From Planctomycetota bacterium (GTDB lineage: Bacteria > Planctomycetota > UBA8742 > UBA2392): a stretch of DNA of 64,000 nt. Below the pieces are notes generated by a model. That model made no database searches and had not been told where the DNA came from. It worked only from the letters and a program-made list of their open reading frames with translations. Positions 23,372 to 50,647 of the stretch are shown here, piece by piece. The stretch covers positions 1,036,951 through 1,100,950 of the forward strand of contig JADKGX010000001.1 in assembly GCA_016722065.1 (NCBI GenBank), written 5' to 3'. A program made the translations under genes and the position numbers. Positions within the stretch are counted from its first letter, which is position 1; every line of letters starts with the position of its first letter.

Positions 23372-24394
23372 TCATGCCCTGGCCTTGCAGGGCCTGTTGC
23401 AGGCCGGTTCGTATTTGTCCGGGTCCGTGCCTGTGATGTGCAGAAAGCCTGGTGCGATACCCTCGGGCCGTTCGGTGTTGTCGCGTGTGACCAGCACGGG
23501 CGTGCCAAAACAGGGCGCCTCTTCTTGCAACCCGCCGCTATCGCTTACTACGCATGCGCTGTGTCGCAGCAGCCACAGGCTGGCGGCGTAGCTTACGGGT
23601 TCAATCACGCGCCAGTGAGCATGCGGCGAAATGCCCTGCAGTTCTCGGCGTACTTCCGGCGAAGGGTGGGCCGCAAACAGAACCGTCACGTCGTCGCGGC
23701 TGGCGGCCATTTCCCGCAGCACGGCCGCAACCCGTGCAATGCCACCATTTTGGTTCTCTCTTCGATGTCCGGTTGCGAACACCAGGCGTTGCCGGCAATC
23801 GGCCAGGGCCACGGCCAGCTCCGGTGGCGGGTCTGGCGGCAGTGTGGCCGCGACCTGCAAAGCTGCGTCCACGCCGGTCTGGCCGCTGACCAGAATCGAC
23901 GCGTCGGCCAGGCCCTCGCGCAGCAGGTTTTCGCGCGCGCCTTGCGTGGGTGCGTACAGCCGGGTTGCCAGGCGATCTACCATGGCGCGGTTCAATTCCT
24001 CCGGCCAGGGGGCATAGCGGTCGTGGCTGCGCAGACCCGCCTCAATGTGGCCGCAGGGCAAGTGGCGATAGTACGCCGCCAGGGCGCCCGCATAGGCGGT
24101 GGTCGTGTCACCCTGCACAAGTATCAGACGTGGCGGGTGCGCAGCCAGATCACCCTCCAGGCGTGTCACCAGTGTTGCCGTAAGGGCGCCCAGTGTCTGG
24201 CCTGGCGGCATGGAACCAGCATCGGCATCGGCCTTCAGCCCAAACGTGGCCAGCGCATCGTGCAACAGCGCCCCATGCTGGCCCGATGCCACCAGCCGTG
24301 TCGCGACGCCAGCGTGGCGCAAGGCGGCCAGCACCGGAGCAAGCTTGATCGCCTCGGGTCGGGTGCCCGCAAAGATGGTCACGTCAATTGGCAT
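23372..24394 (-). CDS. wecB: UDP-N-acetylglucosamine 2-epimerase (non-hydrolysing); the C-terminal ~45 residues are encoded in another frame down to 23271 (apparent frameshift)
   Basis: FAGTRPEAIKLAPV, VQGDTTT, HIEAGLRS and WPEELNR motifs. After ..GTDPDK the expected tail (IRTGLQQAL..LPNPYGDGKASQRIAADVVRMLAGGGH*) continues in a different frame after the T3 run at 23414-23416. Confidence 0.85.
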   Translation of the reverse strand: MPIDVTIFAGTRPEAIKLAPVLAALRHAGVATRLVASGQHGALLHDALATFGLKADADAGSMPPGQTLGALTATLVTRLEGDLAAHPPRLILVQGDTTTAYAGALAAYYRHLPCGHIEAGLRSHDRYAPWPEELNRAMVDRLATRLYAPTQGARENLLREGLADASILVSGQTGVDAALQVAATLPPDPPPELAVALADCRQRLVFATGHRRENQNGGIARVAAVLREMAASRDDVTVLFAAHPSPEVRRELQGISPHAHWRVIEPVSYAASLWLLRHSACVVSDSGGLQEEAPCFGTPVLVTRDNTERPEGIAPGFLHITGTDPDKYEPACNRPCKARA

Positions 24395-26384
24395 GGCCGC
24401 CTCTCAGGCGCTTGCCCAGGCGCAGCAGCGGCATGGGCGTCACGGCGCGCAGCAGCGCTTTATAGCCCGAAACAGAAAGCGGACGATGGCTGACAATGCT
24501 GCAAGCCGCGCGCAGGCTGCGCCACGCCAAACCCTGCCACTTATAGGCACCGGCCAGCCGCACCATCTGGGCGTGGTAGTCGGCATCCCAGTGCGCGGGT
24601 GTGCCGGCGATTGCCATGGCAGCTTCAAGTACTTCTGCTGGTCGGGTGCGCGTCAGGCTGTCGGGCGTGTCACCGTAATCATACAGCACCCGCGCCAGGC
24701 GGCCGATGCGCCCCACCTTGGACATGCGCAGCCAGTAGTCCCAGTCCTCGGCAAGTTTGCGGCCGGGGTCATAAACACCCACCTGGCGGGCGACCTCTGC
24801 GCGATACAGAAAGCATGCGCCCACCACATTGCGCGTTGCAAGTTCGCTGACCGGCCCGGTGCAGGTGGGCTTGCGGCTGCCGTCCTGAAAGCGCACTTCG
24901 TAATCTGCAAACACCATGGCCAGGGAAGTATCCAGCATCAGCTCTCGCGCCATGGCCTGCAGCGCTCCGGGCCGATAGGCATTGTCGTCGCTGGTCCAGG
25001 TCCACAAGTCGCCCGTGGCTGCCTCAAACCCTCGGTTGAGCGCAGTAGGCAGCCCCGCGTTTTCAAAGTGCAGCACGCGCAGGCGCGGATCGTTGCGCCG
25101 GGCCACGACCTGGTCCAGCACCTGGCGGGTAGCGTCGCGGCTGCCGTCGTTGACAACAATCAATTCCAGGTTGGGGTAGTTCTGGTCCAGCACATTGGCG
25201 ATCGCGGCCTCAATCAGCCCCGCGCGATTGAAGGTGGGCAGCACGACACTGACTTTGGGCCAATGCGGTTGCGTCAAGGTGCTGTACAGCGCGCTTTCGC
25301 GGGCCTCGACCACCGCAATGTCGTAGGGCTCGCTGGCGGTTCGCGCCGGAGCAGCCAGGCGTGCCCGGGTGGCCGGTTCGGCGATGTCGCAGATTGCCCG
25401 CGCAATGTCTGCCACACTCTCCGGGTCGCACAGCAATCCGTCCCACTGGTCAGTGACGATGGCATTCATCGGCGCGCGGCGGCTGGTAACGACGGGGACA
25501 CCGCAGGCCAGCGCCTCGGCGAACACAATGCCAAAACCTTCCCACAGGCTGGGCAACACAAACGCATCCGCCCAGCGCAGCCAATTGGGCAACTCGGCGT
25601 GGGGTATGGCATCAAAGTGCGTCACAAAGGGCCACCGAGACCAGTCGCGCGCGGATTTGCCCGCATGCACCAGCGTCAATCCCGGTTGTTTCAAGCGCGC
25701 CTGCTCACAGGCCGCCAGCAGCCGATCCAGATTCTTCTGTTCCACGTCGCGCGCGATGCAAAGTAGGCGCGGCGAACCGGCGGGGCCTTGTGCGGCCGGG
25801 CCCTGGGGCGTGAACACTTGCCGATCCACGCGGTTGGGCACGGTCACGACACGTGCAGGGTCCGCCCCTGCCGCAACGGCGGCGAAGGCCACCGCGTCGC
25901 TGACGCACATCACCACATCAGCCCCAGCCACTACGTTGGCTGCTATGCCGCGCACGTTGTGCACGCTGACCAAGCAGGGCACAGCCATTGCCCTGGCAAG
26001 TTCCAGCCCGATCTGCCCTGCCGCATCGGCATCGTAGGCGCGCACTGCAACCGGGTTGGCATCGCGCGCGGCCTGCAACCACTGGGCCGGCAGCCCGGGC
26101 CAGCCGGCCAGCATTTCAGAGCCCGAAACTACGTCCCGAATGCTGATGTCGCCGAGGCCTGACCGCCAGGCTGCAATCCCTGGCGCGGGCGTTGCCTGAA
26201 CCATCTGCGCGGCGAATGCCTCCGGTGCAGCCTCCTGCTGCCAGTTGAAGAATCGCGTCTGTGCAAAGCAGGCGGCCGGATTGTAGTAACGCTGCATCGC
26301 GGGTGGTTGCTGGCCTTTGGCAACCAGCGTGCCCAGCATGTCGCCGGTGACAATCAACAGGCTGCCCGTCGATGAGCCGGTCAT
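24384..26384 (-). CDS. Fused glycosyltransferase (N-terminal GT4 module + C-terminal GT2 module)
   Basis: GT4 motif FVLPSLWEGFGIVFAEALACGVPVVTS. GT2 motif VSVVLPTFNRAGLIEAAIANVLDQNYPNLELIVVNDGSRD. ATGA overlap with the upstream wzt. Confidence 0.8.
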   Translation of the reverse strand: MTGSSTGSLLIVTGDMLGTLVAKGQQPPAMQRYYNPAACFAQTRFFNWQQEAAPEAFAAQMVQATPAPGIAAWRSGLGDISIRDVVSGSEMLAGWPGLPAQWLQAARDANPVAVRAYDADAAGQIGLELARAMAVPCLVSVHNVRGIAANVVAGADVVMCVSDAVAFAAVAAGADPARVVTVPNRVDRQVFTPQGPAAQGPAGSPRLLCIARDVEQKNLDRLLAACEQARLKQPGLTLVHAGKSARDWSRWPFVTHFDAIPHAELPNWLRWADAFVLPSLWEGFGIVFAEALACGVPVVTSRRAPMNAIVTDQWDGLLCDPESVADIARAICDIAEPATRARLAAPARTASEPYDIAVVEARESALYSTLTQPHWPKVSVVLPTFNRAGLIEAAIANVLDQNYPNLELIVVNDGSRDATRQVLDQVVARRNDPRLRVLHFENAGLPTALNRGFEAATGDLWTWTSDDNAYRPGALQAMARELMLDTSLAMVFADYEVRFQDGSRKPTCTGPVSELATRNVVGACFLYRAEVARQVGVYDPGRKLAEDWDYWLRMSKVGRIGRLARVLYDYGDTPDSLTRTRPAEVLEAAMAIAGTPAHWDADYHAQMVRLAGAYKWQGLAWRSLRAACSIVSHRPLSVSGYKALLRAVTPMPLLRLGKRLRGGHAN

Positions 26385-28487: not shown

Positions 28488-31400
28488 TCAATCGCCCCAG
28501 AACCACAGGTCGGTCAGGCCGCCCTGCTGCATGGCCGAGACTTCGCCATCCAGATAACCGCTGACCACCACCATGCGCGAACCGGCAGCGTCCCACACGG
28601 CGCCGTGCGCCCAACGGTTCTGCGGCCGCGCCACGGGGGGCAGAATTTCCGTCCAGGTGTTCGTGGCCAGGTCCATCGAGAACAAGCGACCCTCCGAGAA
28701 CGCGTTGAACCCGCCGTACACCAGCATGCGGTGCAACGCAGGGTCATACACCATGCTGTGATAAAACAGGCCTGCGGGCGCCGTGCCGACCTTGGCCATG
28801 GTGGTCCATGCCGGGGCACCGGACATGTTCAGGGAGTGCAATGTCGTCAACGTGCCGTTGTTGCTGCCGCCGTACAAGATCATCCTGTCGCCCACCGGGT
28901 CATAGATTGCGGCTGCGGCAATGCGCGCGTTGATGGAACCCGTCGCGGCGACCTGCGCCCAGACCAGTGTTGACAGGTTCAGCGCATAGGTGGTGTTCAA
29001 GAACGCGCCGGTTTCCGCGCGACCGCCAAAGATCACCATGCGCCCTGCACCGTCCACCACCGCCACATGCTGGGCACGCTTGCCGGGCGACGCGCCGCTG
29101 GTGGCCAGCAGCGTCCAGGATTCGCTGCCCGGCGTCAGTGTCAGCGCCCAGACTTCGTCCGTAATCGTGCTGTCGGCTACGCCGGTGCGGCCGCCATACA
29201 GAATCATGCGGCTGCTGCCGGCGTCGTAAATCATGGTCGCTGTGCGCCGCGTGCCAGGGCGAGCGCCAGGCGGGTCTATCCGCTGCCAAGTGGCAATCGG
29301 GGATGCCAGGTCCAGCGACCACAGTGAGGCATCAACCAGCCCGTCCACCAGACCGCCAAAGGCAATCAGCCTGCGGTTGACAGGGTCCAGGGCCACGGCC
29401 GTGTGGGCCAAGGCTGAGGGACTGGCCAGTTCGCCCAGCTGCGTCCAGCCCGCGGCCGGGGCGGAGGGGTCAATCTGCCATACATCGCGCAAGGGCGCCC
29501 CGGAAAGCAGGCCAAAGCCGATCACGAGTCTGGAACCGTCATAGGCGCCAGCGTGGGTGGTACGCGCTGAAGGGGCGGGAGCCGCAAAGGCAAGCTGCGT
29601 CCAGGCCGCAATAGCGCCACCGACGTCCAGTTGCCACAGATCGGACTGCGCCACTCCGGTGTCGCCGCCAAACAGCCATGCCATCGTGCCTGCAGTGTTG
29701 TTTCCGCAGCCAAACAACGCGCGGCCAACCGGCTGCGTGCCGCCAACTTGCGAGATGTTCGTCCAGCCCATGGTTGTCAGCTCAAACGACCACACTTCGT
29801 TGGTGAACGCGCTGGAGTGGCGCCCGCCAAAAATCACCATGCGGTTCTGCGCCGCGTCGAACATTGCCCCATGGCCATAACGTGCAGCAGGTGCGAGGCC
29901 TGACGGCACAAGCTGTGTCCAGGCTGAAAGGCCGAAGTCATAGGCCCAGGTTGTGCCAACATACGTGGTGGTAAAGCCGCCATGCATGATCGCGCGGTTG
30001 GTCAGGCTGTCATACACCAGCGAATGGCGAATGCTGCCCAGCGGGCCCGAACCGGCATGGGCCGTCCATACCGGAGTGCCGGCAAGATCGAGCGTCCAGA
30101 TATCGGCCTGGCGGGTTCCGGTGGCGTCCTGGCCGCCGCAAACAATCATACGCCGGTTGACAGCATCAAATGTGGCGGCGTGATAGACCCGCGCACCCGG
30201 CCCACCGGCAACGTTCAAACGTACCCAGGGCGCACCGGATATCGACCGGTCCATCACCCAGATTTCGCTGTAGTAGTTGTTGGCGTCCTTGCCGCCGAAC
30301 AGCACAAGCTGGTTGTTGAACGAATCAAACACGATCGTCGCGCCCCACCGCGCCGGAGGCGTGTTCGATGTCAATGTCGGGCTGCCCAAGAACGCCGGTG
30401 GCTGCACCGACAAATCCAGCACGCTGAACGCCACCAAAGCGACGCTGCCTGTGAACCCGCCATAGAATAGACCCTGCTGCCGCACCGGGTCAAATGCTGC
30501 CGCACCCTGCACGCGGCCTGCCGCGGCAGCCGGGTCACCCGGCAGTTGGGACCAGACATGCTGGTTGGGGCCGGAAAGCGGCATCGCAAATCCGTCCACA
30601 CGCACCGCGCCGCCGTTGTAGCCACTTTGCACGACGATGCGGTTACTGACGCTGTCATAAAGGTAGGTACCAAAGTAGCGGGCGCCCGGTGCGCCTGCCG
30701 TTGCCACCGACGACCACGAGAACGTGGTCAGGTTCATCTGCCAGGTGTCGGCGTTTGTGCCCGTGGATGACTGCCCGCCGTAAATCACCAGACGGTTGCC
30801 AGATGCATCCAGGGCCGCGGCTTGGCCACTGCGTGAAGGACCGCCTGTGGTGACCGGCCCGGTGCCCCAGCTTTCCGCGCCCAGGGTCAAATCCAGCGCC
30901 CAAGTGTCGTTCTGGTATCCGCTGCCAACACCGCCGTGCATCAGGGCGCGCTGGTTGCCGGCATCGTACGTAAACGATGCGGCATAGCGCGCCGCCGGCG
31001 TTGCCGGAGAGGCCCCGGCCAGCAGGGTCCAGGCTTCAGCGCCCGGCGTAAGGTCCAGGGCCCATACCTGGGCCGAAGTGCCGGAATCAGCCAGCCCGCC
31101 AAAGACCACCATGCGGTCGTTGGCGGCGTCATACAGCGCCGTCGAATACTGGCGCGAAGAGGGCGCAGTGCCCGAGGGCGAAAGCATCTTCCAGCCAAGC
31201 ACGGAACCAGGGCCGCGTTCATAGACCCATACCCGGTTGGTGCGTACAGTGCCGATCTTGCCGCCAAACACCACCATGCGGTCGTTGGCCTCGTCGTAGA
31301 CCGCAACATGCCCCAGCACTGGCGTGGCTTGTTCGCTGGGCGTTACGTGCTGCGTCCAGCCGCCGTTGCGCTGCAGGGTGAAGGCTGGGCTGCTGCCGGG

Positions 31401-34400
31401 GGTGCCGGGCTGCACGCCAATGAAAGGCGACAGCGTCAGCACGTAGTTGAACGCCGTGGTGTGGCGTTCCGTGGCATAGGCATCCCAGACCAGCGTGATT
31501 GTCGTGTTGGACGGCACACCCAGAATCGTATTGCCGGAAATCGTGCCCGCAGAGGTAGAAACCAGCACCGGCGGGCCGGCATTGGCGCCGCCGCTGTAGG
31601 TAACCACAACGTCAATGAATGTCGAAACCGGCCCATTGATCGTGGCCTGCACGGTCAGCGGGCCGCCGTTGTCGGCACTGACCGTAACGGCCGTGACGCT
31701 GGCCGGTGGCACGCCGTTGCCGGTCAAAGTCACGTCAAAGTCGCCACTGCTGCCGCCGCTGTCGCTGGTGATACGCAGCAAACTGGCCCGCGCGCCTGTG
31801 GCACCCGGGGTGAAGACCGCGTCGAACTGGAAGTTGCCGCCCGCTGCAACCACCACCGGCAAACTCGGGGCAACAGCAAAGGTCCAATCCGTTGCGTTGC
31901 CGGTCGTAAATGCCAGGCCGGTGATCGTCAGAGGCCCGGTGCCGGTGTTGTTCAATGTGTGGGTCAGCGGCGACAGGTTCGACGGGCTGCCGACATAGCC
32001 AGTGCCGAAATCAACCGGCGAGGCCGCAGCCAAAGTTCCCACAGTGCCGGTGCCGGTAACCGTGACGTCGAAATTGCCGCTGGTGCCGCCGCTGTCACTG
32101 GTGATGCGCAGCAGACTGTTGCGACCGCCGATGGCACCGGGCGTAAACGTGGCCGAAACAACCACGTTACCGCCGGCCGCAATCACAATCGGGAAGCTTG
32201 GCGCCACGGTGAACGCCCAGTCGCTGGCGTTACCCGTGGTGAAAGCCAGGCCGGTAATCGTCAGCGGGCCCGTGCCGGTGTTGTTCAGCGTGTGGTTGAC
32301 CGCACCAGAGGTCTGGAACAGGTTCAAGCTGCCGTATCCGACGGGCGTTGCGGTGCTCAACGTACCAACGGTGCCGGTACCGGTCACCGCGACGTCAAAG
32401 TCGCCGCTGGTGCCGCCGCTGTCGCTGGTGGTGCGCAACAGGCTGTTGCGCGCACCCACGGCACCTGGCGTGAAGGTGGCCGAAACAACCACATTGCTGC
32501 CGGCGGCAATCACAATCGGGAAACTCGGCGCCACGGTAAATGCCCAGTCACTGGCGTTGCCGGTCGTGAACGCAAGGCCGGTGATCGTAAGCGGGCCAGT
32601 ACCCGTATTGTTCAGTGTGTGGTTAACCGCACCGGTGGTCTGGAACAGGTTGATGCTGCCATAAGCCACCGGCGTCGTGGTTGTCAGCGTACCCACCGTA
32701 CCTGTGCCGTTGCATACAACATCAAAGTCGCTGCTGGGCCCGCCCGAATTGTACGTGATTCGCAGCAGTGTCGACCGTGCGCCGGGCGCGCCGGGGGTGA
32801 ACGTGGCCTGCACGTTTACATTCAGCCCTGCACCAATGTTGATGGGATAGGTCGGCGCAACCGTAAAGGCCCAGTCGCTGGCGTTGCCCGTAATGAACTG
32901 AAGGTTGGTCACCGAAAGCGGGCCGCTGCCCGTGTTCGAAAGTGTGTGCGTGACGGCCGTGCCGGTCTGAAACACATTGATAGTCGGGTAAATCACTGGC
33001 GAGGCCGAGGCCATGCTGCCCGTTGTGCCGGTACCCGATACGGCCACATCAAAATCACCGCTGGTGCCGCCGCTGTCACTGGTGATGCGCAGCAGACTGC
33101 TGCGGGCACCTGTGGCGCCGGGCGTGAATGTCGCCGAAATCACCACGTTGCCGCCGGCAGCAACCACAATCGGGAAGCTTGGCGCCACGGTGAAGGCCCA
33201 ATCACTGGCGTTGCCGGTCGTGAACACCAGGCCGGTAATCGTCAGCGGGCCGGTGCCCGTGTTGTTCAGCGTGTGGCCCACAGGGCTGCTGGTGACGCCG
33301 ACATTCGATGACCCGTAGGCGACAGGCGTTGCGGTGGCCAGCGTTGCCACGGTGCCGGTACCGTTAACCGTCACGTCGAAATCACCACTGGTGCCGCCGC
33401 TGTCACTGGTGATGCGCAGCAGGCTGTTGCGCGCACCCACGGCGCTTGGCGTGAGCGTGGCTGAAATCACCACGTTGCCGCCGGCAGCAATCACGATCGG
33501 CAAGCTTGGCGCCACGGTAAATGCCCAGTCACTGGCGTTGCCGGTTGTGAACACCAGGCCCGTGATCGTAAGCGGGCCTGTGCCTGTGTTGTTCAAAGTG
33601 TGGTTGACCGCACTGGTAGTCTGAAACAGGTTGATGCTGCCATAGGCCACTGGCGTCGCTGTTGTCAACGTTCCGACAGTACCTGTGCCGTTGAGGGTGA
33701 TGGTCGTGATCGTCGTGCCCACGCCAGCACCTTGGTCCCAGGTGATGCTGACCGTGGCTGTGCGCGGCCCAGTGGCCGAAGGTGTAAACACGCCGCTGAA
33801 TACGATGTTACCTGAACCCGCCACGGTGGCCGGGAAGGCCGGCAGACCACTGAGTGCCCAATCGCTGGCGTTGGCGCCACCCAGGGCAATGCCCGTGATT
33901 CGCATCGGGCCGGTGCCTGTGTTGTTCACCTGATGATTGGTGGCAGGGCTGGTTGAGACGCCCAAATTGCTGTTGCCGTAGTTCACCGGCGTGGTAACGC
34001 CAATCACGGCTTGGGTGCCGGTGCCATTGAGTGTGATGGTGGTAATCGTCGTGCCGACGCCGCCGCCTTGATCCCAGGTAATGCTGATTGTGGCTGTGCG
34101 CGGGCCTGTTGCCGAAGGCGTAAACACGCCTGAGAACACCATGTTGCCGGCAGCCGCCACGGTGGCCGGGAAGGCCGGCAGACCACTGAGTGCCCAATCG
34201 CTGGCGTTGGCGCCGCCCAGGGCAATGCCGGTGATTCGCATCGGGCCGGTGCCTGTGTTGTTCACCTGATGATTGGTGGCCGGGCTGGTTGAGACGCCCA
34301 AATTGCTGTTGCCGTAGTTCACCGGCGTGGTAACGCCAATCACGGCCTGGGTGCCGGTGCCGTTGAGTGTGATCGTGGTGATCGTCGTGCCTACGCCAGC

Positions 34401-37400
34401 ACCTTGATCCCAGGTGATGCTGATAGTGGCTGTGCGCGGGCCTGTTGCCGAAGGCGTGAACACGCCTGAGAACACCATGTTGCCGGCAGCCGCCACGGTG
34501 GCCGGGAAAGCCGGCAGACCACTGAGTGCCCAATCACTGGCGTTGGCGCCACCCAGGGCAATGCCCGTGATTCGCATCGGGCCGGTGCCTGTGTTGTTCA
34601 CCTGGTGGTTTGTAGCGGGGCTGGTTGAGACGCCCAGGTTGCTGTTTCCGTAGTTCACGGGCGTCGTCACGCCGATCACGGCTTGGGTGCCCGTGCCGTT
34701 TACCGTGACGTCAAAATCACCGCTGGTGCCGCCGCTGTCACTTGTGATGCGCAGCAGGCTGCTGCGGGCACCTGTTGCGCCGGGCGTGAATGTCGCCGAA
34801 ATCAACACGTTGCCACCGGCCGCAATCACAATCGGGAAGCTTGGCGCAACGGTGAAGGCCCAATCACTGGCGTTGCCGGTCGTGAATGCCAAGGCCGTGA
34901 TCGTAAGCGGGCCAGTGCCCGTATTGTTCAGTGTGTGGCCCACAGGGCTGCTGGTGACGCCCACATTCGATGACCCATAGGCCACAGGCGTCGCGGTGGC
35001 CAGCGTTGCCACGGTGCCGGTACCGTTGAGTGTAATGTTGGTGATGGTCGTGCCCACGCCAGCACCTTGATCCCAGGTAATGCTGATTGTGGCTGTGCGC
35101 GGCCCAGTGGCCGAAGGCGTAAACACGCCGCTGAATACGATGTTACCTGAACCCGCCACGGTGGCCGGGAAAGCCGGCAGGCCACTGAGTGCCCAATCGC
35201 CGGCATTGGCGCCACCCAAGGCAATGCCGGTGATTCGCATCGGGCCGGTGCCGCTGTTGTTCACCTGATGGTTCGTGGCCGGGCTGGTTGGGACGCCCAG
35301 GTTGCTGTTTCCGTAGTTTACTGGCGTGGTAACGCCGATCACGGCTTGGGTGCCCGTGCCGTTTACCGTGACATCAAAATCGCCGCTGGTGCCGCCGCTG
35401 TCGCTGGTGATGCGCAAGAGGCTGCTGCGGGCACCTGTGGCGCCGGGCGTGAATGTCGCCGAAATCACCACGTTGCCACCTGCCGCAATCACAGTCGGAA
35501 AGCTTGGCGCCACGGTGAAGGCCCAATCACTGGCGTTGCCGGTCGTGAACACCAGGCCGGTAATCGTCAGCGGGCCGGTGCCCGTGTTGTTCAGCGTGTG
35601 GCCGACCGGGCTGCTGGTTACGCCAACATTCGATGACCCATAGGCCACTGGGGTTGTCGCTGACAGCGTTCCGACTGTGCCGTTGCCGGTCAGGGCGACA
35701 TCGGTCTGGGTATTGATCGGGCCTGTGGTGTTGCTGAAGAACCGCAAAGTTCCGTTGCGGCTGCCGGTGCCCTGCGGAATGAACCGCACCTGAAACGCCG
35801 TGTTGCCGCCCGGCGTAACGTTGATTGGAAAGGTTGGCGCGGGTGCGGTAAATGACCAGTCACCGCCATTGGCGCCCACAAAGCTGGCGCCAGAAATCGT
35901 CAGCGTTCCCGACCCGGTGTTCGTCACGGTGTGTGTGATCGGCGAAAGCGGCGAAACCGTAAACACGTTGGTCGTGCCGTAGTCCACGGGCCCCAGGGGT
36001 GTGCTCAAGGTAGCCACCGTGCCTGTGCCCGTTACATTGACGTCGGTCAACGTGTTGATGAAGCCACCGGAATCGCTGGTAAACCGCAGCGTGGAAGCCA
36101 GGGCCCCAGTCGCCGTAGGAGTCAGAACTGCCGTAACATTGGCGTTGCCGCCGGCAAGAATCACAATCGGCAGGCTTGGCGCCGGGCTGAACGCCCACAT
36201 CGCTGCCTGGCCACCCGTGAACTGAATGTTGCTGATCGTCAGCGTGCCCGTGCCTGTGTTGTTGATCGTGTGCGTCACGGGGGAAAGACTGCTGGGCGTG
36301 AACAGGTTACTGGTGCCGTAGGCCACGTTCAGGCTGGTCGTCAACACGCCCGCTGTGCCACTGCCCGAAACCGCAATGTTGAAGTTGCCGCTGGTGCCGC
36401 CTGAATCGCTGGTCACGCGCAACGTGGAGTTGCGTGCGCCCACAGCCGTTGGAATCAACCTGGCCTGAACGTTGTTGCTGGCACCGGGGCCAATCAACAT
36501 GGGCAGGCTGGGGGCAACCACAAAGCTCCAGTCCGCTGCGTCGCCGCCGACAAACGCCAGGGCGGTAATCGTCAATGTGCCGGTTCCGGTGTTGGTAAAG
36601 GTGTGCGTCACCGGCGACAGGTTCGTAGGCGAACCCAGGTTGCCGGTGCCGTAGTTTGCCGAGGCCGCGGTGCTGAGAGTGCCCACCAGCGCGTTGCCGG
36701 TTACCGATACATCCGTGAACTGGCCAGCCGGGCCACCGGTGTTGCTGGTAATGCGCAACGTCGCAGCACGGCCCCCTGTGCCCTGGGGCGTGAAACTGGC
36801 CTGTATGTTGACTGTTGCACCAATGCCAATGTTGAAGGGCAAGCCGGGCGCCGAAGTCACGGCCCAATCGGCGGCATTGGCACCAATGAAGTTCAGGGCC
36901 GTCACCGTCAATACGGCACTGCCGGTGTTGGTCAGTGCATGGGTGATCGGTGAAAGCGGAGAAGTCGTAAACACGTTGGTTGAGCCATAGTTCACCGGGC
37001 CCAGCGGCGTGCTCAAGATACCTGCGATGCCCGTGCCCGTGACGGCCACATTGCGCGTTGTGTAGGGTGCACTGGCGTTGGTGACGTTGCCACTGAAGGC
37101 ACCCGATGCCGCGGGGTTAAAGCGCACAAAGATCGTGGTCAGCGTCGCGGCTTGTGCCGGGGTACGTGACAGGCTTGCAAGCCAGGGCCCGCCCGCTGCC
37201 AGCGCTACTTCAAAGTTGGCCGGTGGCGTAATCACCAGGTTGGCAGCCAGGCCAACGCCCTGCACGTTGTAGCTTTGCGCAGCCGAAGCCGTGCTGACCT
37301 GCTGGTTGCCAAATGCCAAGGGCCCGGCCGTGCTGACGGTGATTCCTGCGCCCGTGCCGCTTACCGCCACGTTCTGGGTTGCAGCACCCGTGCTGGCGTT

Positions 37401-40400
37401 GCTGACATTGCCAGCAGCAGCACCCAGAGACGCCGGGTTGAAGCGAACAAACACGGTGGTGGAAGCCACTGTGCCGCTGGCCGGGACCAGGCTGAGGTTT
37501 GCAAGCCACGGCCCGCCCGCAGCCAGGGCAACCTGAAAGTTGGCCGGAGGCGTAACCACCAGGTTGGCCGCGAGGAACGTGCCCGACACGCTGTAACTCT
37601 GGGCGGCTGAGTTGGTGCCAATCTCGACATTGCCAAAGCTCAACGGCCCGCCCACCACGCTGATGGTCGGCACCACGCCAGTACCCGAAATCGCGTAGTT
37701 ACTGGTTGCCGTTGCCGGCATGGTGGCGTCAGAATTGTTCCAGGTGACCGTAATGTTGGCCGTGCGCAAACCGACTGCGCCCGGTGTGAACACGATGTTG
37801 TAGGTAGCCGTGCTGGCGCCTGCGGCAAGCACCCCACTGGGGGCGACGCCCTGAATGACAAAGTCGGATGCATTGGCGCCAGTGATGCGAATGCCGTTGG
37901 CCGGCACAGGCGCGGGCAACGTGAGCGAAAAGTTGCCCATGTTCTGCACCTGAAAGCCCTGGGCCGCGCTGGGCGCGCCAACAGCCACGTTGCCGAAGTT
38001 ACTGAAGCCGGCCGTGGGCACGCTTTTCACCTGCGCGCGCTCGGCCGGCACGTACTGCACAAACCACGAAATCAGGCGGCCCGTGCCGCCGTTGCCGTCG
38101 TCGGCAATCGCGATTGTCCAGTTGCCCGAAGGGTTGGTGCCGTACAGCGCGTTGAAAGCCGCCGTGCCTTCCTCAATGTAACCATTGGCCGCGGTAAACG
38201 GCGCCGTGCCGCCCGTGACCGGCGTGTTGCCCGGGCTGAACTGCCGGTCGCCGTTGCGCGAAAGCCGCGCGTACACAAATGAAACCGCGCCGGTACCGTA
38301 GTCATTGCCGGTGCCGCCGTTGTCGGTCGAAAGCTCAATCACCCCCGCGGGCGGTGTCACGTTGGCGCCGTTGTTGATCGTGGTGTAGGGGCCGGCCCAG
38401 GTCACACCGGGCGGAATCAGCCAGATATCCAGGTCTGCGTCGTTGGCGTGGTCAATACGAATGCCAATGCGCAACGCACCAATCAGGTCACTGGTGGCCG
38501 GAATCGTGATCGTGTCGGTAATACCCGCCGCGTTGTTGTCCGGGATGCTTTTGCCAAAGGGCGGCGTGCTTACATACGTGTTGGGCGGATTCAGCGGGTG
38601 CGCCCCGTAATCCAGCGGGTAAGGCGCAATTTCACTGGTTGAACCCACAATGTCGGCATTTGTCGCGTGGCGCAGCGAAAGCACCGTGTTAGCCGGCGAG
38701 GCCTGAACCGTACCCACAATCAGCAGGAACTCGGTGGCGCCAGAAGCAACATTGAAGCCACCGGCAATATTGAACGTGGCCACAGCGCCGGCCATGCCGC
38801 CGTTGGCCACCAGTGTATCCGTGCCGGGGTCATAGACGCCGTTGGCGTTGACGTCGCGGTACAACGCAATCGCACTGAGGTTATTGCCGATGTTGAAGTT
38901 GTTGACTTCACGGGCGGTAATCTGGGTGACGCTGTTGGCGCCAAAGTAAGCCGAAAGCTCCAGTTGCCCGAACACGTTGCCAGCCGTGCCCGTGGTGGCG
39001 GGCAAGCCGGGGTTGTTGCTGTCGCCTATGTTGGCCCAGAACTGCGGCGTCGTAATAGGCACGTATTCAAGTTGCCAGGAAACCAGATAGCCCACGTCCT
39101 GGCCCCAGGAATCGACGACGATCAACTGCCATGTTCCGCTGGGGTTGCCGTTGTAAGAAAGATTCCAGGCCGTGGTGCCTTCGACGCGATACTGCGGCTG
39201 GGCCGTGAACGGCGAACCGCCGCCCGTGATCAAGCTGGAAGCTGGCCACGTGGGGTCATTAGCGCCAGACAGGCGCGCATAGTTGTAGGTGTAACTAGTG
39301 GCGTTGCTGCCCCAGTTGTTGCCGCCGCCACCGTTGTCGGTGGACAGTTCAATCACTTGCGGCGGGGCGGTAATCACCGGGCCGTTGTTTGGCACCGCGT
39401 AAGGCGGGTTCCAGACCACTCCGGGCGGCAGAAGGTAGATGTCCAGGTCCTGGTCGTACGTGTGATCCAGCCGGATACCAACCCGCATCGAGCCAACACG
39501 GTCACTGGTGGCCGGAATGGTAATGCCGCGGGTGATGCCGACCTCGTCGTTGTCCGTAATCAGATCCGGCTGCCCCGGCCGATATGTGAAGGTCGTCGCA
39601 GTAACAAATGGGCGCGGCCCGGCGCGCACCGGAAACAAACCGTCTTCGGTTAGTGGAGACCCGATTGAGGCCGCCGACAGAATCTCAATCTGCATCGAAG
39701 CCGGGGCCGGAGCGGCGACAACTGTGCCAACCAGCAGCAGGTTCACGCCCGCATTGGCCCCAATAGCCTGGGCAAAGTTGAAGGTTGCGTTGGCACCAGC
39801 CAGCACGCCCGCAGCCAGCAGCGTGTCGCCACCATCCAGCAAGCCATCGCCGTTGTTGTCGCGATACAGCGAGGCCGCAGAAATCAGGCTGGTCAGCGTT
39901 GTGTTCGCCACCTCATGAAACACAATGCTGGTCAGGTTGTTGGCAGCCCCACCAACAGCTTCCATGCGGTACTGGCCCAGCACCTGGCCGGCCTGTCCGC
40001 GTGCGATGGGCAAGCCCGGGTCGTTGTTATCACCCAGGTGGGCATACAGCGTGTTTGCGGCCACGGGGGTATAGAGGATCTCCCAGCTCACCAGCGTGCC
40101 GGTGCCCGTGCCGGTGTCGTCAGCGACTATCAGCGTCCAATTGCCTGCGGCGGGGCGCCCGTACAGCAACTCCAACCAGTCCGAGCCCTCGGGTGAATAC
40201 ACCATGGTGGTAAACGGGGACACGCCCGTGGTGACCGACGCCAGGCCGGGGGTCACCGGGTCGCCAGCCGCCGAAAAACGCGCATAGGACGACGGGGCCG
40301 CAGTGGTGCCGTAGTTCGCGCCGCCGCCGTTATCGGTCGAAAGTTCAATCACACCGCGCGGAATCGGTACGTTCAGGGCCTCTGATTGCGTGGAAAACTC

Positions 40401-41210
40401 GTTGGCAACCAGCGTGTAAGGGCCTGCCCAGGTCACCCCCGGCGGAACAAGGTAGATATCCAGGTGCGTGTCGTTGGCGTGGCTGATGCGCAGCCCAACC
40501 TGCAAAGATCCAATCAGGTCACCGCTGGCAGGAATCGAGATCGTGCTGGCAACACCGGTGCGAGAGCCGTCGGGAATGGCAACTCCCGGGTCGGCAAAAT
40601 AGCCGTGCACGTAACGTACTTCCCAGGAAATCAGGGTGCCGGTCTGTCCGCCCTGGTCGTCCAGTACCACCAGTTTCCAGTCGCCAACCGGGCTGGTGCG
40701 GTACAGGGCATTGAAGTCGTTCACACCCTCTACGGTGTAACTGTTGGCTGTGAAGGGCGCAGAGCCCGCCGTGACCGCTTGTGTGGACTGAAACACCGGG
40801 TCGGTCGTTACGCTCAGGCGGGTGTAAACATAGGGCCCAGCCCCGGAGCCGTAGTTGGGGTTGTTACCGCCGTTGTCGGTGCTCAAATCCACCACGCCAG
40901 CCGGCGGCGGAGTTACATAGTTCGCGCCGCTGCGATTCCAGGTAACACCTGGCGGCACCAGGTACATATCCAGGTGTTGGTCGCGCGGGTGGTCCACACG
41001 CACGCCGATCTGAAGCGCGCCAATCTGATGGCCGTTGTAGGGCGCCGAGTTGGGTATCGTGATGGTGCTGTCTGCGCCAGCATCACTGTTATCAGGAATG
41101 GCAATGTTGGGCGAAGCCGACAACGAAACGACCTGCGCCGACAACCCGGATGCGAGTGCGATCAGTGCAACTAGTGCCAGTTGTCCGCACTTCGTCAAGC
41201 TGTCCCCCAA
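28488..41210 (-). CDS. Giant secreted surface protein (~4,240 aa): signal peptide, 4 proprotein-convertase-type P-domains, 19 Ig-like (choice-of-anchor-D/ASH-like) modules, 1 beta-sandwich, 18 Kelch blades
   Basis: Single uninterrupted ORF. P-domain motif repeated 4 times (IPD..G..S.I.IP....IG.L.VG.RI.H..D..LDIYL.PPGV.W ... W.L.V.D...G..G.L.SW.). 19 modules of about 111 aa (..H.L.NTGTGPLTI..L.F.GGNA.DW.F...P..P..I..G.......F.P...G.R...LRITSDSGG...F.V...GTGT). 18 Kelch-type ..R....GG.. blades. Start is TTG 41210 or, more likely, TTG 41198 (SD GGGGGA; MTKCGQLALVALIALASGLSAQ). Confidence 0.9.
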   Translation of the reverse strand: MGDSLTKCGQLALVALIALASGLSAQVVSLSASPNIAIPDNSDAGADSTITIPNSAPYNGHQIGALQIGVRVDHPRDQHLDMYLVPPGVTWNRSGANYVTPPPAGVVDLSTDNGGNNPNYGSGAGPYVYTRLSVTTDPVFQSTQAVTAGSAPFTANSYTVEGVNDFNALYRTSPVGDWKLVVLDDQGGQTGTLISWEVRYVHGYFADPGVAIPDGSRTGVASTISIPASGDLIGSLQVGLRISHANDTHLDIYLVPPGVTWAGPYTLVANEFSTQSEALNVPIPRGVIELSTDNGGGANYGTTAAPSSYARFSAAGDPVTPGLASVTTGVSPFTTMVYSPEGSDWLELLYGRPAAGNWTLIVADDTGTGTGTLVSWEILYTPVAANTLYAHLGDNNDPGLPIARGQAGQVLGQYRMEAVGGAANNLTSIVFHEVANTTLTSLISAASLYRDNNGDGLLDGGDTLLAAGVLAGANATFNFAQAIGANAGVNLLLVGTVVAAPAPASMQIEILSAASIGSPLTEDGLFPVRAGPRPFVTATTFTYRPGQPDLITDNDEVGITRGITIPATSDRVGSMRVGIRLDHTYDQDLDIYLLPPGVVWNPPYAVPNNGPVITAPPQVIELSTDNGGGGNNWGSNATSYTYNYARLSGANDPTWPASSLITGGGSPFTAQPQYRVEGTTAWNLSYNGNPSGTWQLIVVDSWGQDVGYLVSWQLEYVPITTPQFWANIGDSNNPGLPATTGTAGNVFGQLELSAYFGANSVTQITAREVNNFNIGNNLSAIALYRDVNANGVYDPGTDTLVANGGMAGAVATFNIAGGFNVASGATEFLLIVGTVQASPANTVLSLRHATNADIVGSTSEIAPYPLDYGAHPLNPPNTYVSTPPFGKSIPDNNAAGITDTITIPATSDLIGALRIGIRIDHANDADLDIWLIPPGVTWAGPYTTINNGANVTPPAGVIELSTDNGGTGNDYGTGAVSFVYARLSRNGDRQFSPGNTPVTGGTAPFTAANGYIEEGTAAFNALYGTNPSGNWTIAIADDGNGGTGRLISWFVQYVPAERAQVKSVPTAGFSNFGNVAVGAPSAAQGFQVQNMGNFSLTLPAPVPANGIRITGANASDFVIQGVAPSGVLAAGASTATYNIVFTPGAVGLRTANITVTWNNSDATMPATATSNYAISGTGVVPTISVVGGPLSFGNVEIGTNSAAQSYSVSGTFLAANLVVTPPANFQVALAAGGPWLANLSLVPASGTVASTTVFVRFNPASLGAAAGNVSNASTGAATQNVAVSGTGAGITVSTAGPLAFGNQQVSTASAAQSYNVQGVGLAANLVITPPANFEVALAAGGPWLASLSRTPAQAATLTTIFVRFNPAASGAFSGNVTNASAPYTTRNVAVTGTGIAGILSTPLGPVNYGSTNVFTTSPLSPITHALTNTGSAVLTVTALNFIGANAADWAVTSAPGLPFNIGIGATVNIQASFTPQGTGGRAATLRITSNTGGPAGQFTDVSVTGNALVGTLSTAASANYGTGNLGSPTNLSPVTHTFTNTGTGTLTITALAFVGGDAADWSFVVAPSLPMLIGPGASNNVQARLIPTAVGARNSTLRVTSDSGGTSGNFNIAVSGSGTAGVLTTSLNVAYGTSNLFTPSSLSPVTHTINNTGTGTLTISNIQFTGGQAAMWAFSPAPSLPIVILAGGNANVTAVLTPTATGALASTLRFTSDSGGFINTLTDVNVTGTGTVATLSTPLGPVDYGTTNVFTVSPLSPITHTVTNTGSGTLTISGASFVGANGGDWSFTAPAPTFPINVTPGGNTAFQVRFIPQGTGSRNGTLRFFSNTTGPINTQTDVALTGNGTVGTLSATTPVAYGSSNVGVTSSPVGHTLNNTGTGPLTITGLVFTTGNASDWAFTVAPSFPTVIAAGGNVVISATFTPGATGARSSLLRITSDSGGTSGDFDVTVNGTGTQAVIGVTTPVNYGNSNLGVPTSPATNHQVNNSGTGPMRITGIALGGANAGDWALSGLPAFPATVAGSGNIVFSGVFTPSATGPRTATISITWDQGAGVGTTITNITLNGTGTVATLATATPVAYGSSNVGVTSSPVGHTLNNTGTGPLTITALAFTTGNASDWAFTVAPSFPIVIAAGGNVLISATFTPGATGARSSLLRITSDSGGTSGDFDVTVNGTGTQAVIGVTTPVNYGNSNLGVSTSPATNHQVNNTGTGPMRITGIALGGANASDWALSGLPAFPATVAAAGNMVFSGVFTPSATGPRTATISITWDQGAGVGTTITTITLNGTGTQAVIGVTTPVNYGNSNLGVSTSPATNHQVNNTGTGPMRITGIALGGANASDWALSGLPAFPATVAAAGNMVFSGVFTPSATGPRTATISITWDQGGGVGTTITTITLNGTGTQAVIGVTTPVNYGNSNLGVSTSPATNHQVNNTGTGPMRITGIALGGANASDWALSGLPAFPATVAGSGNIVFSGVFTPSATGPRTATVSITWDQGAGVGTTITTITLNGTGTVGTLTTATPVAYGSINLFQTTSAVNHTLNNTGTGPLTITGLVFTTGNASDWAFTVAPSLPIVIAAGGNVVISATLTPSAVGARNSLLRITSDSGGTSGDFDVTVNGTGTVATLATATPVAYGSSNVGVTSSPVGHTLNNTGTGPLTITGLVFTTGNASDWAFTVAPSFPIVVAAGGNVVISATFTPGATGARSSLLRITSDSGGTSGDFDVAVSGTGTTGSMASASPVIYPTINVFQTGTAVTHTLSNTGSGPLSVTNLQFITGNASDWAFTVAPTYPINIGAGLNVNVQATFTPGAPGARSTLLRITYNSGGPSSDFDVVCNGTGTVGTLTTTTPVAYGSINLFQTTGAVNHTLNNTGTGPLTITGLAFTTGNASDWAFTVAPSFPIVIAAGSNVVVSATFTPGAVGARNSLLRTTSDSGGTSGDFDVAVTGTGTVGTLSTATPVGYGSLNLFQTSGAVNHTLNNTGTGPLTITGLAFTTGNASDWAFTVAPSFPIVIAAGGNVVVSATFTPGAIGGRNSLLRITSDSGGTSGNFDVTVTGTGTVGTLAAASPVDFGTGYVGSPSNLSPLTHTLNNTGTGPLTITGLAFTTGNATDWTFAVAPSLPVVVAAGGNFQFDAVFTPGATGARASLLRITSDSGGSSGDFDVTLTGNGVPPASVTAVTVSADNGGPLTVQATINGPVSTFIDVVVTYSGGANAGPPVLVSTSAGTISGNTILGVPSNTTITLVWDAYATERHTTAFNYVLTLSPFIGVQPGTPGSSPAFTLQRNGGWTQHVTPSEQATPVLGHVAVYDEANDRMVVFGGKIGTVRTNRVWVYERGPGSVLGWKMLSPSGTAPSSRQYSTALYDAANDRMVVFGGLADSGTSAQVWALDLTPGAEAWTLLAGASPATPAARYAASFTYDAGNQRALMHGGVGSGYQNDTWALDLTLGAESWGTGPVTTGGPSRSGQAAALDASGNRLVIYGGQSSTGTNADTWQMNLTTFSWSSVATAGAPGARYFGTYLYDSVSNRIVVQSGYNGGAVRVDGFAMPLSGPNQHVWSQLPGDPAAAAGRVQGAAAFDPVRQQGLFYGGFTGSVALVAFSVLDLSVQPPAFLGSPTLTSNTPPARWGATIVFDSFNNQLVLFGGKDANNYYSEIWVMDRSISGAPWVRLNVAGGPGARVYHAATFDAVNRRMIVCGGQDATGTRQADIWTLDLAGTPVWTAHAGSGPLGSIRHSLVYDSLTNRAIMHGGFTTTYVGTTWAYDFGLSAWTQLVPSGLAPAARYGHGAMFDAAQNRMVIFGGRHSSAFTNEVWSFELTTMGWTNISQVGGTQPVGRALFGCGNNTAGTMAWLFGGDTGVAQSDLWQLDVGGAIAAWTQLAFAAPAPSARTTHAGAYDGSRLVIGFGLLSGAPLRDVWQIDPSAPAAGWTQLGELASPSALAHTAVALDPVNRRLIAFGGLVDGLVDASLWSLDLASPIATWQRIDPPGARPGTRRTATMIYDAGSSRMILYGGRTGVADSTITDEVWALTLTPGSESWTLLATSGASPGKRAQHVAVVDGAGRMVIFGGRAETGAFLNTTYALNLSTLVWAQVAATGSINARIAAAAIYDPVGDRMILYGGSNNGTLTTLHSLNMSGAPAWTTMAKVGTAPAGLFYHSMVYDPALHRMLVYGGFNAFSEGRLFSMDLATNTWTEILPPVARPQNRWAHGAVWDAAGSRMVVVSGYLDGEVSAMQQGGLTDLWFWGD
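31711..38039 (-). repeat. Array of 19 Ig-like coding modules (~111 aa each) inside the giant gene
   Basis: Modules counted directly from the translation. Two subfamilies, A (112 aa, ..WALSGLPAFPATV..ISITWDQGAGVGTTIT) and B (109 aa, ..WAFTVAPSFPIVIAAGGNVVISATF..LRITSDSGGTSGDFDV), alternate in the centre. Confidence 0.85.
33678..34685 (-). repeat. Three tandem, near-identical 336-bp (112-aa) type-A modules
   Basis: Unit boundaries at 34685, 34349, 34013 and 33678, anchored on CAG GCC/T GTG ATT GGC (QAVIG). Copies differ at a few percent of positions, mostly synonymous. A fourth A copy lies at 35013-35348. Confidence 0.85.
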
Positions 41211-41612: not shown

Positions 41613-43349
41613 TTGGAAACATCCTGCATTGATGCAGCCTGGTGCATTGCCAGCCAGCGAACGCCTGCTGTTCGCGAACTGGCCGATGGGCTGCGCATTC
41701 CCGATTACGTTGCCCGGGCGCTGATCAATCGCGGCGCAGGCGATTTGGACCAAGCCCGGCAGTTTCTGGCCGCCACCAGCGCCAACCTGGAAGACCCCTT
41801 TGCCTTCCGAGACATGCAGCAGGCCGTGGACCGCGTTCTGCTGGCCCTGCAGCGCCACGAATTGACACTGATTCAGGGCGATTACGACGTCGATGGCAGC
41901 GCCAGCGCGGCCCTTTTGGTGAACCTGTTTCGCCTGCTGGGTGGCCAGGTGGAAGTCAGCATTCCTTCCCGCGCACAGGATGGCTACGGCCTGAATGAAC
42001 GCATCGTGCGCCGGGCCGCCCAGCGCGGTGTGAAGCTGATGATCACCTGCGACAACGGCACGACGGCCAACGCCGAGATCGCGCTGGCCCGCGACCTGGG
42101 CATTGAAACCATCATTACCGATCACCACACCGTGGGTGAAACCCTGCCCCCGGCCGTGGCGGTGCTGAACCCGCACGTCAAATCCGAGCAACTGAAGTTC
42201 CGCGACCTGTGCGGCGCGGGGGTTGCTTTCAAGCTGGCCTGGGCGGTACTGACCCGCCTTTCAAGCCGCGAGAAACTGGACCCGCCGTTTCGGGATTTTC
42301 TGGCCGGCGCCCAAAGCCTGGTGGCACTGGCCAGCGTGGCCGACGTGGTGCCGCTGCTGGGCGACAACCGCATCTTGACGCGTCAAGGCCTACGCAGCAT
42401 GCCCGACAGCCCCAACCCCGGCATTCGCGCGCTGATGGAAACCAGCGGCCTGGACAAGATTCCCAGTGGCACCGATGTCGGCTTCAAGCTGGCACCGCGC
42501 CTCAATGCCGGCGGCCGCCTGGGCCGCGAAACCCTGGCCGTGGAACTGCTGACGGCACAAAGCTACGGCCAGGCCATGGAACTGGCCGCTGAAACCGACA
42601 GCCTGAACCGCCAGCGCCAGACACTCGATCGCGAACTGACCCGCATGGCCGAAGACATGGTCACGGCTGATGCGGGCTATGAGTCCGAACGCATTCTGGT
42701 TGTGGGCCACGACGATTTTCACCCGGGCGTCGTCGGCATTGTGGCGGCGCGGCTTTCGCGGCGGTTTAACAAGCCTGCCGTGCTGGTGGCCACTGGCGCG
42801 GCAATGGGCCGGGGCTCCGGTCGCAGCATTCCGGGTTTTCACCTGTACAACGCGCTGCAGGAATGCGGCACCTTGATGCACCGCTTTGGCGGCCACGCCC
42901 AGGCCGCAGGTCTGGAAATCACCCGCGAAAACCTGGGCATGCTGCGGCGTGCCGTGAATGAAATCGCCGACAAGCATGTGGTGCAGGCTGGCTATGAAAC
43001 CCCGACATTGAAGATCGACGCGGAAGTTCCGCTTGCCGATCTGGGCGTTGAGGGCGTGGACATCCTTCAAGGCCTGGAGCCCTTTGGCGAAGGTAACCCT
43101 GAGCCCGCGTTCATGACCACGGATGTCGAAGTCGCGGCGCCGCCCAAGGTGGTGGGGCGCGGCACGGGGCATCTTTCGATTCTGCTAAAGCAGCAAGGCC
43201 CGGCCATGCGCGGCATCGGTTTTGGACTGGGCGACCGCATTGGCCAGTTCAAGCGCGGCGACAAAGTGCGTGTCGTTTACACACCAAAGATCAGCACCTT
43301 TCGCGGCCCCGCGGAAGTCGAACTGGAACTCAAGGACATCCGCGCCTGA
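41613..43349 (+). CDS. recJ: Single-stranded-DNA-specific exonuclease RecJ
   Basis: DHH motifs (IQGDYDVDGSAS, ITCDNGT, ITDHH), DHHA1 region (GGHAQAAGL) and C-terminal OB-like region. TTG 41613 is the only start codon in the open frame. Confidence 0.9.
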   Translation: METSCIDAAWCIASQRTPAVRELADGLRIPDYVARALINRGAGDLDQARQFLAATSANLEDPFAFRDMQQAVDRVLLALQRHELTLIQGDYDVDGSASAALLVNLFRLLGGQVEVSIPSRAQDGYGLNERIVRRAAQRGVKLMITCDNGTTANAEIALARDLGIETIITDHHTVGETLPPAVAVLNPHVKSEQLKFRDLCGAGVAFKLAWAVLTRLSSREKLDPPFRDFLAGAQSLVALASVADVVPLLGDNRILTRQGLRSMPDSPNPGIRALMETSGLDKIPSGTDVGFKLAPRLNAGGRLGRETLAVELLTAQSYGQAMELAAETDSLNRQRQTLDRELTRMAEDMVTADAGYESERILVVGHDDFHPGVVGIVAARLSRRFNKPAVLVATGAAMGRGSGRSIPGFHLYNALQECGTLMHRFGGHAQAAGLEITRENLGMLRRAVNEIADKHVVQAGYETPTLKIDAEVPLADLGVEGVDILQGLEPFGEGNPEPAFMTTDVEVAAPPKVVGRGTGHLSILLKQQGPAMRGIGFGLGDRIGQFKRGDKVRVVYTPKISTFRGPAEVELELKDIRA

Positions 43350-50622: not shown

Positions 50623-50647
50623 GCATGTCGCGGGGCAACCAGGCAAG

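Follow-up and report, generated by a model that had tools for sequence, protein, structure and literature searches.

A giant repeat protein encoded beside a glycan ABC-export locus in Planctomycetota: architecture, conserved genomic slot and a possible surface or matrix fibre

We analyzed a 64,000-nt stretch of a Planctomycetota genome (contig JADKGX010000001.1, positions 1,036,951 to 1,100,950; hereafter the window, to which all coordinates refer) that carries a giant gene on the minus strand, located between a divergently oriented recJ and the wzm-wzt genes of a glycan ABC exporter. An earlier note, made from the sequence of this DNA, had read the gene as coding for a secreted protein of unusual architecture. 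Counted from the first TTG (41210) the open reading frame (ORF) comprises 4,240 codons without interruption, and the frame is unbroken across 12.7 kb. A second TTG is located four codons further on at 41198, with the sequence GGGGGA 6 nt upstream of it. This start gives MTKCGQLALVALIALASGLSAQ followed by VV and a product of 4,236 amino acids (aa), and it is also the start of the public record P0002 (4,236 aa), which is found on a contig of 2.7 Mb. We consider TTG 41198 the likely true start of the gene.

The possibility that the ORF is an artefact, either a misassembled repeat array or a decaying pseudogene, was weighed by comparing its repeats with each other. The four most similar immunoglobulin (Ig)-like modules share 91-96% identity at the protein level and 87-91% at the DNA level, so that the most similar repeats still differ in 9-13% of their DNA. 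Exact DNA repeats within the gene reach 104 bp at most. For the closest repeat pairs we found a dS of 0.27-0.50 and a dN/dS of 0.06-0.12, which points to copies that are old, distinguishable and under purifying selection. A collapse or expansion of the repeats by the assembly, which the earlier note had named as evidence that would count against its reading, is therefore unlikely, as far as this can be judged from the repeats themselves. Together with the uninterrupted frame and with orthologues that are intact in 16 species, these values make an artefact hardly credible. In its favor it can be said that two near-identical relatives from two assemblies, P0003 (L003; 3,780 aa) and P0004 (L018/L005; 3,113 aa), differ by ~6 Ig-like modules, hence repeat number is unstable or sometimes collapsed; the difference in length may be either a true repeat-number polymorphism or a collapse in short-read assembly. 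The unbroken frame, the public record and the domain searches described below all bear out that the ORF is real.

Gly, Thr and Ala each account for 12-13% of the residues (Thr 13%), Ser for 8% and Asn for 6.5%, and there is little Lys (0.2%) and only four Cys in the whole chain, a composition typical for a secreted beta-protein. From the translation, a signal peptide had been proposed, followed by four P-domains interspersed with two modules of ~150 aa carrying Ca-binding-like loops, 19 Ig-like modules, one distinct beta-sandwich and 18 Kelch blades, enough for three six-bladed propellers, with no subtilisin domain and no recognisable anchor. This arrangement stood up well. Pfam and module-wise scoring upheld the order of the N-terminal parts, the loops in both ~150-aa modules are present and conserved, our own count of the stalk again gave 19 modules with 18 choice-of-anchor D stretches, the distinct sandwich could be located, and Kelch profiles and blade count concur (Table 1). 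Among the Pfam matches to the protein there are P_proprotein, then ASH, HYDIN_VesB_CFA65 and Cep192_D4, and the Kelch families. Neither Peptidase_S8, the subtilisin family, nor any other peptidase is found among them, and Pfam and NCBIfam detected no catalytic family in all 4,240 aa.

Table 1. Features of the giant gene and of its neighborhood, in window coordinates
Feature	Residues (aa)	Coordinates	Strand	Remarks
Giant gene ORF		28488..41210	-	4,240 codons uninterrupted from first TTG (41210)
Sec (type I) signal peptide		41133..41210	-	From likely start: MTKCGQLALVALIALASGLSA, followed by Q
P-domain module 1	27-204	40599..41132	-	PF01483, 25.1 bits
P-domain module 2	205-384	40059..40598	-	PF01483, 30.5 bits
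Spacer module 1	385-548	39567..40058	-	Loop DNNGDGLLDGGD; beta-sandwich in AlphaFold2 model
P-domain module 3	549-724	39039..39566	-	PF01483, 33.2 bits
Spacer module 2	725-884	38559..39038	-	Loop DVNANGVYDPGTD; homologous to spacer 1
P-domain module 4	885-1062	38025..38558	-	PF01483, 26.5 bits
Stalk, 19 Ig-like modules	1063-3156	31743..38024	-	Pfam, NCBIfam, tandem repeats
Hallmark Ig-like sandwich	3157-3292	31335..31742	-	Invariant W-D-A-Y-A-x-E-x-H (alignment A2)
18 Kelch blades	about 3293-3620, 3621-3935, 3936-4240	28491..31334	-	Kelch profiles, blade count
Stop codon of giant gene		28488-28490	-	
wzm		27649-28443	-	ATG 44 nt after stop of giant gene
wzt with Wzt_C domain		26381-27652	-	Glycan ABC exporter with wzm
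GT4-GT2 fusion, UDP-GlcNAc 2-epimerase, two GT4 genes, double GT4		18747..26384	-	
Mixed glycan locus		8609-28443		Including NAD epimerase/dehydratase, several GT4 genes
Wza-like Poly_export protein		17069-17833	+	
703-aa protein		14961-17072	+	Faint Wzz match alone
518-aa polytopic membrane protein		13298-14854	-	No family
MBOAT acyltransferase		10743-12167	-	
recJ		41613..43349	+	Divergent upstream neighbor, synteny marker of the slot

The N-terminal head consists of four modules of ~178 aa that were scored singly against the P-domain profile PF01483 (Pfam cut-off 21 bits), and all four are individually above the cut-off. In their native form they align to profile positions ~50-85 only, that is to the last ~35 of 86. 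Each module carries an insert of ~70 aa with the motif LSTDNGG..NYG, of which LSTDNGG is invariant in an alignment of the four. After excision of the ~70 residues that separate PPGVxW from Y..EG, module 1 covered positions 4-85 of the profile, and module 3 with its insert spliced out scored 36.5 bits over positions 3-85. Since excision extends the match from end to end in these two modules, the head modules are, judged by profile alignment, P-domain jelly rolls split by an insert and belong to the galactose-binding-domain-like superfamily. No family of its own was detected for the insert. Comparison of the P modules with the PDB by sequence returned an aspartokinase match alone, which we judged spurious, so that no solved structure was matched.

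The two spacers between the P-domains share 40% identity in an alignment of 20 homologous copies (A1). The loop D-x-N-x-D-G-x-x-D-x-x-D is conserved across all of these copies, within a (near-)invariant stretch L-Y-x-D-x-N-x-D-G-x-x-D-x-G-D, and shows the 1-3-5-9-12 pattern of dockerin and EF-hand loops; searching the PDB with the spacer profile gave weak matches to dockerin calcium loops and nothing else. An AlphaFold2 model of spacer 1 (predicted local distance difference test, pLDDT, 90.8) is a confident beta-sandwich. Its best Foldseek matches are the N-terminal carbohydrate-binding modules (CBMs) of Bacteroidetes GH33 sialidases (4fj6, 4bbw, 7qxo), and the fold also matches the N-terminal sandwich of GH123 enzymes (best matches E ~1e-4, TMq 0.5-0.6). 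On the basis of this model the spacers are best described as CBM-like sandwich domains in their own right that bear a Ca-loop motif.

The stalk comprises 1 + 2 + 16 = 19 modules of Ig-like type. One is divergent and choice-of-anchor-D-like, two measure 107 aa and match no Pfam family, and the other 16 (109-114 aa) are of the choice-of-anchor D/ASH/HYDIN type and fall into two recently expanded subtypes. In NCBIfam only choice_anch_D (NF012200) was matched, in 18 stretches and with 583.5 bits (cut-off 45). From the number of modules we estimate that the fully extended protein would measure roughly 100 nm. The hallmark sandwich that follows the stalk has no Pfam family. Its AlphaFold2 model (pLDDT 85) matched generic nanobody, Ig and V-set folds only, with no specific relative found, and its profile gave only chance matches in the PDB. 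Within 1.84 billion proteins the sandwich matches 45 representatives, about a dozen of which are members of the giant family proper. More distant WDAYATE.H sandwiches, 5-14 of them in tandem, are found in unrelated proteins of large size that are secreted or lipoprotein-like (P0054, P0057, P0060, P0062-P0064). Taken together they make up a beta-sandwich domain family that lacks a Pfam model.

The C-terminal block scores above the cut-offs of the Kelch profiles PF24681 (399.7 bits), PF24981 (268.8) and PF13415 (169.7), and we counted 18 'GG' Kelch blades, which would make up three six-bladed propellers. The chain ends with LTDLWFWGD, which in the 18th blade forms the third strand ([DE]xWxhxh) and is comparable to QVWALDL, DIWTLDL and EVWALTL in other blades. 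DLWFWGD being a regular blade strand, the end of the protein coincides exactly with that of the last propeller. To regard WFWGD as a C-terminal sorting signal is unnecessary: it is an ordinary blade strand that no model matches. All relatives keep the tail TWF[WY]G[DRE]; a sub-clade (L032 and L033, also P0007, P0009 and P0022) ends in ETWFYGR and the other members in TWFWGD. We also rejected an enzyme of the galactose oxidase type, since what matches the 'galactose oxidase central domain' are Kelch motifs of a generic kind, and no more than two Cys occur in the region. The closest solved structures to the propellers are eukaryotic Kelch domains.

The earlier note had suggested to look for homologues and their neighboring secretion genes. 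Among 5.8 billion proteins we found at least 12 relatives that are full-length (2,600-4,500 aa) and contain these domain families; those that have been given a name appear in the records under 'choice-of-anchor D domain-containing protein [Planctomycetes bacterium]'. The choice-of-anchor D domain owes its name to alternative C-terminal anchors (PEP-CTERM, LPXTG, T9SS C-terminal domain and similar), none of which is needed for a protein to count as a member of this domain group. When 185,579 species genomes were scanned for the pattern, 16 loci were found, all in metagenome-assembled genomes (MAGs) of Planctomycetota, and in most relatives a glycan ABC-export locus adjoins. When 41 related genomes were searched with the head, it was present in 17 of the 22 genomes of one GTDB family, and outside of this family there were weak matches to P-domains only (E >= 9e-14). 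Two genomes, G002 (L014/L019) and G005 (L015/L026), gave no head match, yet they carry a giant gene with the sandwich-Kelch block in the slot between recJ and wzm; the absences in the head search therefore represent head variants and not gene losses. Several MAGs of the family presumably originate from activated sludge or wastewater, as judged by isolate names. Within the host genome, choice-of-anchor D, spacer and sandwich modules are found nowhere else, and the only other candidates for paralogues are weak, namely three Kelch loci and a single P-domain match. By these searches the giant protein belongs to a family that is small, lineage-restricted, already catalogued and experimentally unstudied, and its architecture is not unique. 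What is new are the split P-domains, the CBM-like spacers, the restriction to one GTDB family, the constant C-terminal block, the swapping of heads and the adjacency to wzm/wzt.

Comparison within the family separates constant from variable parts. Sandwich and triple-Kelch block are present in every member, including the exact C-terminal end. Most members have a head of two to four P-domains plus spacers. P0015 and P0016 have no P-domains, and P0016, which belongs to a congeneric species and occupies the same recJ-wzm slot, carries LamG (Laminin_G_3) and CARDB modules at its N-terminus instead. Among relatives such as P0004 (isolate ACE_PLA32), P0005 (HKST-UBA87) and P0016 (H3_PLA7) the order of the parts, the TWFWGD end and the recJ / wzm-wzt slot are the same, and the copy in the window differs by having the largest P-domain head (four; others two, three or LamG) and 19 stalk modules. 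Sequence identity to the nearest relative amounts to 66-89% for the head modules, 79% for RecJ, 74% for Wzm, 68% for Wzt, 50-67% for the glycosyltransferases and 42-57% for the propellers. The propellers are thus the fastest-evolving part, at about the pace of the glycosyltransferases, and the head tracks or exceeds RecJ. The Kelch block is constant in architecture and fast-evolving in sequence.

These observations bear on the orientation of the protein. In the earlier note it had been understood as a long stalk-like surface fibre with the propellers as lectin- or ligand-binding domains at the distal end. Being a fibre is also our best reading, in view of the binding modules and the lack of an enzyme, but the orientation is possibly the reverse, because the Kelch block is constant family-wide and the head is swapped (P-domains versus LamG) within one genus. 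With the propellers distal, the head or another partner would attach the fibre to the cell. The fastest evolution of the propellers is what would be expected of an exposed tip, and the head has, in its P-domains and CBM-like spacers, modules that could attach to the glycan of the cell itself. Against this arrangement stand the invariant architecture of the Kelch block up to its C-terminal end and the wholesale replacement of the head by LamG in a congeneric species; in the known giant RTX adhesins it is the ligand-binding modules that are exchanged, as is typical of a variable distal tip. We therefore consider it unlikely that the propellers are distal.

No anchor became apparent in the giant protein. 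No sorting-signal model in NCBIfam matched the whole protein, nor the last 150 aa alone at E <= 10, and with Pfam this upholds the absence of a recognisable anchor that had been noted from the translation. PEP-CTERM, LPXTG or anchors of the type IX secretion system (T9SS) C-terminal domain type were not matched in NCBIfam, RTX repeats (HemolysinCabind), an autotransporter barrel or an N-terminal two-partner secretion (TPS) domain were not found with Pfam and NCBIfam, and the protein has neither a lipobox at its N-terminus nor a membrane-spanning tail. The host genome encodes no exosortase; it contains five secretin genes and two TolC-like genes. Every relative with an intact N-terminus shows an equivalent hydrophobic N-terminus that ends with A followed by Q, and these N-termini give good support to the prediction that the protein is exported by Sec into the periplasm. 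A protein exported by Sec only might stay in the periplasm as an intra-envelope scaffold, e.g. binding imported or nascent polysaccharide. The Sec signal is indeed the sole demonstrable export signal and no feature for targeting to the outer membrane was found; in addition, planctomycetes are described as possessing an enlarged periplasm that is used in polysaccharide handling (PMC12673574). Still, extracellular fibres are usually built like this ~100-nm Ig rod with lectin-like ends, five secretins are available in the genome, and head swapping together with fast-evolving propellers suggests exposure to the outside. We therefore regard a periplasmic location as quite improbable.

Downstream of the giant gene the glycan locus begins with wzm and wzt, followed by the glycan synthesis genes, which are collinear in L001, L003, L014 and L018-L031. 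The 16 species loci include 14 that are informative on the downstream side. In 10 of these 14 relatives wzm-wzt directly follow the giant gene with gaps of ~50-840 nt (11 of 15 including the window). The recJ side is visible in 13 loci, and recJ is located upstream of the giant gene in all of them (13/16; the other three end short of it). The order of structural gene, wzm/wzt and glycosyltransferase genes, with a gap of just 44 nt, resembles the slg loci of Geobacillus, where the S-layer structural gene precedes the glycan cluster, and could mean that the glycan is covalently linked to the fibre, which is rich in Thr, Ser and Asn. This richness is, however, common to any secreted beta-rich protein. 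Furthermore a Wzy_C-type ligase or oligosaccharyltransferase (PF04932; WaaL/PglL/WsaB-type) is absent genome-wide at E <= 0.01 with positive controls, in a genome that is 88% complete and has an unassigned 518-aa membrane protein in the locus, and no O-antigen ligase or O-oligosaccharyltransferase was found in the glycan locus even at relaxed thresholds. That the giant protein is a glycoprotein substrate of this cluster thus appears very unlikely.

As it contains no enzyme module and binding-type folds only, the protein most likely represents a giant fibre of the cell surface or matrix rather than some novel type of machine. More specifically, we propose as a somewhat probable explanation that it is exported by Sec, free of enzymatic activity and held non-covalently, being docked via its Kelch block on the glycan made by the neighboring locus. 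The passage beyond the periplasm, the binding to the glycan and the choice of the proximal end are the parts of this proposal that we infer. After cleavage of the signal peptide in the periplasm the protein would cross the outer membrane via a secretin-based (type II-like) system and would then remain attached to the cell, or lodged in the floc matrix, by binding the polysaccharide exported by Wzm/Wzt in a lectin-like, non-covalent manner. The N-terminal head with its four P-domains and two CBM-like spacers would most likely serve as a variable ligand- or glycan-binding tip, carried by the 19-module Ig stalk, the module number of which may drift by duplication, and the constant C-terminal block of sandwich and three propellers would be the likelier docking end. 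We assign the ends in this way because it is the heads that swap at a fixed slot, and docking on the glycan would fit with the divergence of the propellers, which is about as fast as that of the glycosyltransferases.

Several observations weigh against docking of the Kelch block on the exported glycan. The signal peptide demonstrates export to the periplasm only, and the nearest solved relatives of the propellers are eukaryotic Kelch domains that bind proteins, not lectins. Rapid divergence of the propellers equally fits an exposed distal tip, and physical linkage of propeller and glycan genes would give the same signal as co-evolution. In L023, L030, L032 and L033 unrelated housekeeping genes are located downstream of the giant gene and the genomes keep wzt elsewhere. 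Genomes without a head match still have wzt, and at least two of them (G002, G005) carry a head-variant giant gene. Finally, as recJ is equally syntenic, the adjacency of wzm/wzt may be inherited gene order. In L032 and L033 the genes found downstream are a cysteine-synthase-like gene, a Ser/Thr kinase, ATE, PilT-like and LpxC-FabZ genes, with no wzm/wzt.

A more far-reaching version of the docking proposal, which we regard as doubtful, is that sandwich and Kelch block together constitute an undescribed polysaccharide-dependent docking device of diderm Planctomycetota that tethers exchangeable heads via a stalk of variable length. It would be a functional parallel to SLH domains or the N-terminal domain of RsaA, and its propellers would evolve in concert with the glycan.

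We compared the giant protein with known systems of similar build. Its closest analogues in function are giant RTX adhesins and the exopolysaccharide-bound matrix proteins of Vibrio cholerae. With giant RTX adhesins (LapA, SiiE, MpIBP/FrhA type) it shares the logic of a long Ig-like extender combined with lectin-like modules and no enzyme. These adhesins are however exported by a C-terminal signal of the type I secretion system (T1SS) and not by an N-terminal Sec signal, and RTX repeats, an N-terminal retention plug, a BIg-type extender and adjacent T1SS genes are all missing in our case. RbmA, RbmC and Bap1 of Vibrio cholerae are secreted without an anchor, consist of beta-sandwich, lectin and propeller modules (the propeller being present in RbmC and Bap1), are encoded beside a polysaccharide locus and are retained through their binding to this polysaccharide. 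RbmA binds Vibrio polysaccharide (VPS) directly (PMC5605196), and the matrix proteins of this species move together with substrates of type II secretion (PMC10865864). They show no sequence relation to the giant protein, are 10-20 times smaller and have another type of propeller, and polysaccharide binding has been demonstrated for them while it is proposed here.

S-layers offer a further parallel. RsaA of Caulobacter is held on the O-antigen and SLH domains on secondary cell-wall polymers, in both cases non-covalently. Common to the S-layer and slg systems and to our proposal is the idea that a glycan of an ABC pathway holds a surface protein whose structural gene is located upstream of the glycan genes. 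In contrast to S-layers, the giant protein has no SLH or RsaA-like domain, its genome has no Wzy_C-type ligase and there is no evidence of a lattice. With regard to the head, the P-domain follows the subtilisin domain in furin/kexin and in bacterial secreted proteases; in the giant protein a protease domain is missing and P-domains are arrayed four times, each with its ~70-aa LSTDNGG insert. The family is thus a new architectural variant of giant repeat-rich surface or matrix proteins.

Giant genes are a recognised and functionally unexplained trait of Planctomycetota (PMC12673574). The family described here offers a comparative handle on how diderm Planctomycetota display very large proteins that have no known sorting signals, as it combines a constant C-terminal module, lectin-like heads that are exchangeable within one genus, a drifting stalk length and a fixed slot at a glycan-export locus. 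Should docking on the glycan prove true, the family would stand for a new principle of anchoring and would be a candidate for a structural role in sludge flocs; otherwise we would be dealing with another large binding protein that lacks an anchor, from an uncultured lineage.

Scans of the 64-kb window for tRNA genes and Rfam families gave no matches. A weak 7-bp hairpin (28481-28500, minus strand) overlaps with the stop codon of the giant gene and is followed by CTTGTTTGGG; it could act as an attenuating terminator before wzm. At the edge of the glycan locus we noticed a gene for a 722-aa protein with TPR repeats and a Peptidase_C39_2 domain (6346-8514, minus strand), and just past recJ there is an array of TPR paralogues (44768-58366) that is unrelated to the giant gene.

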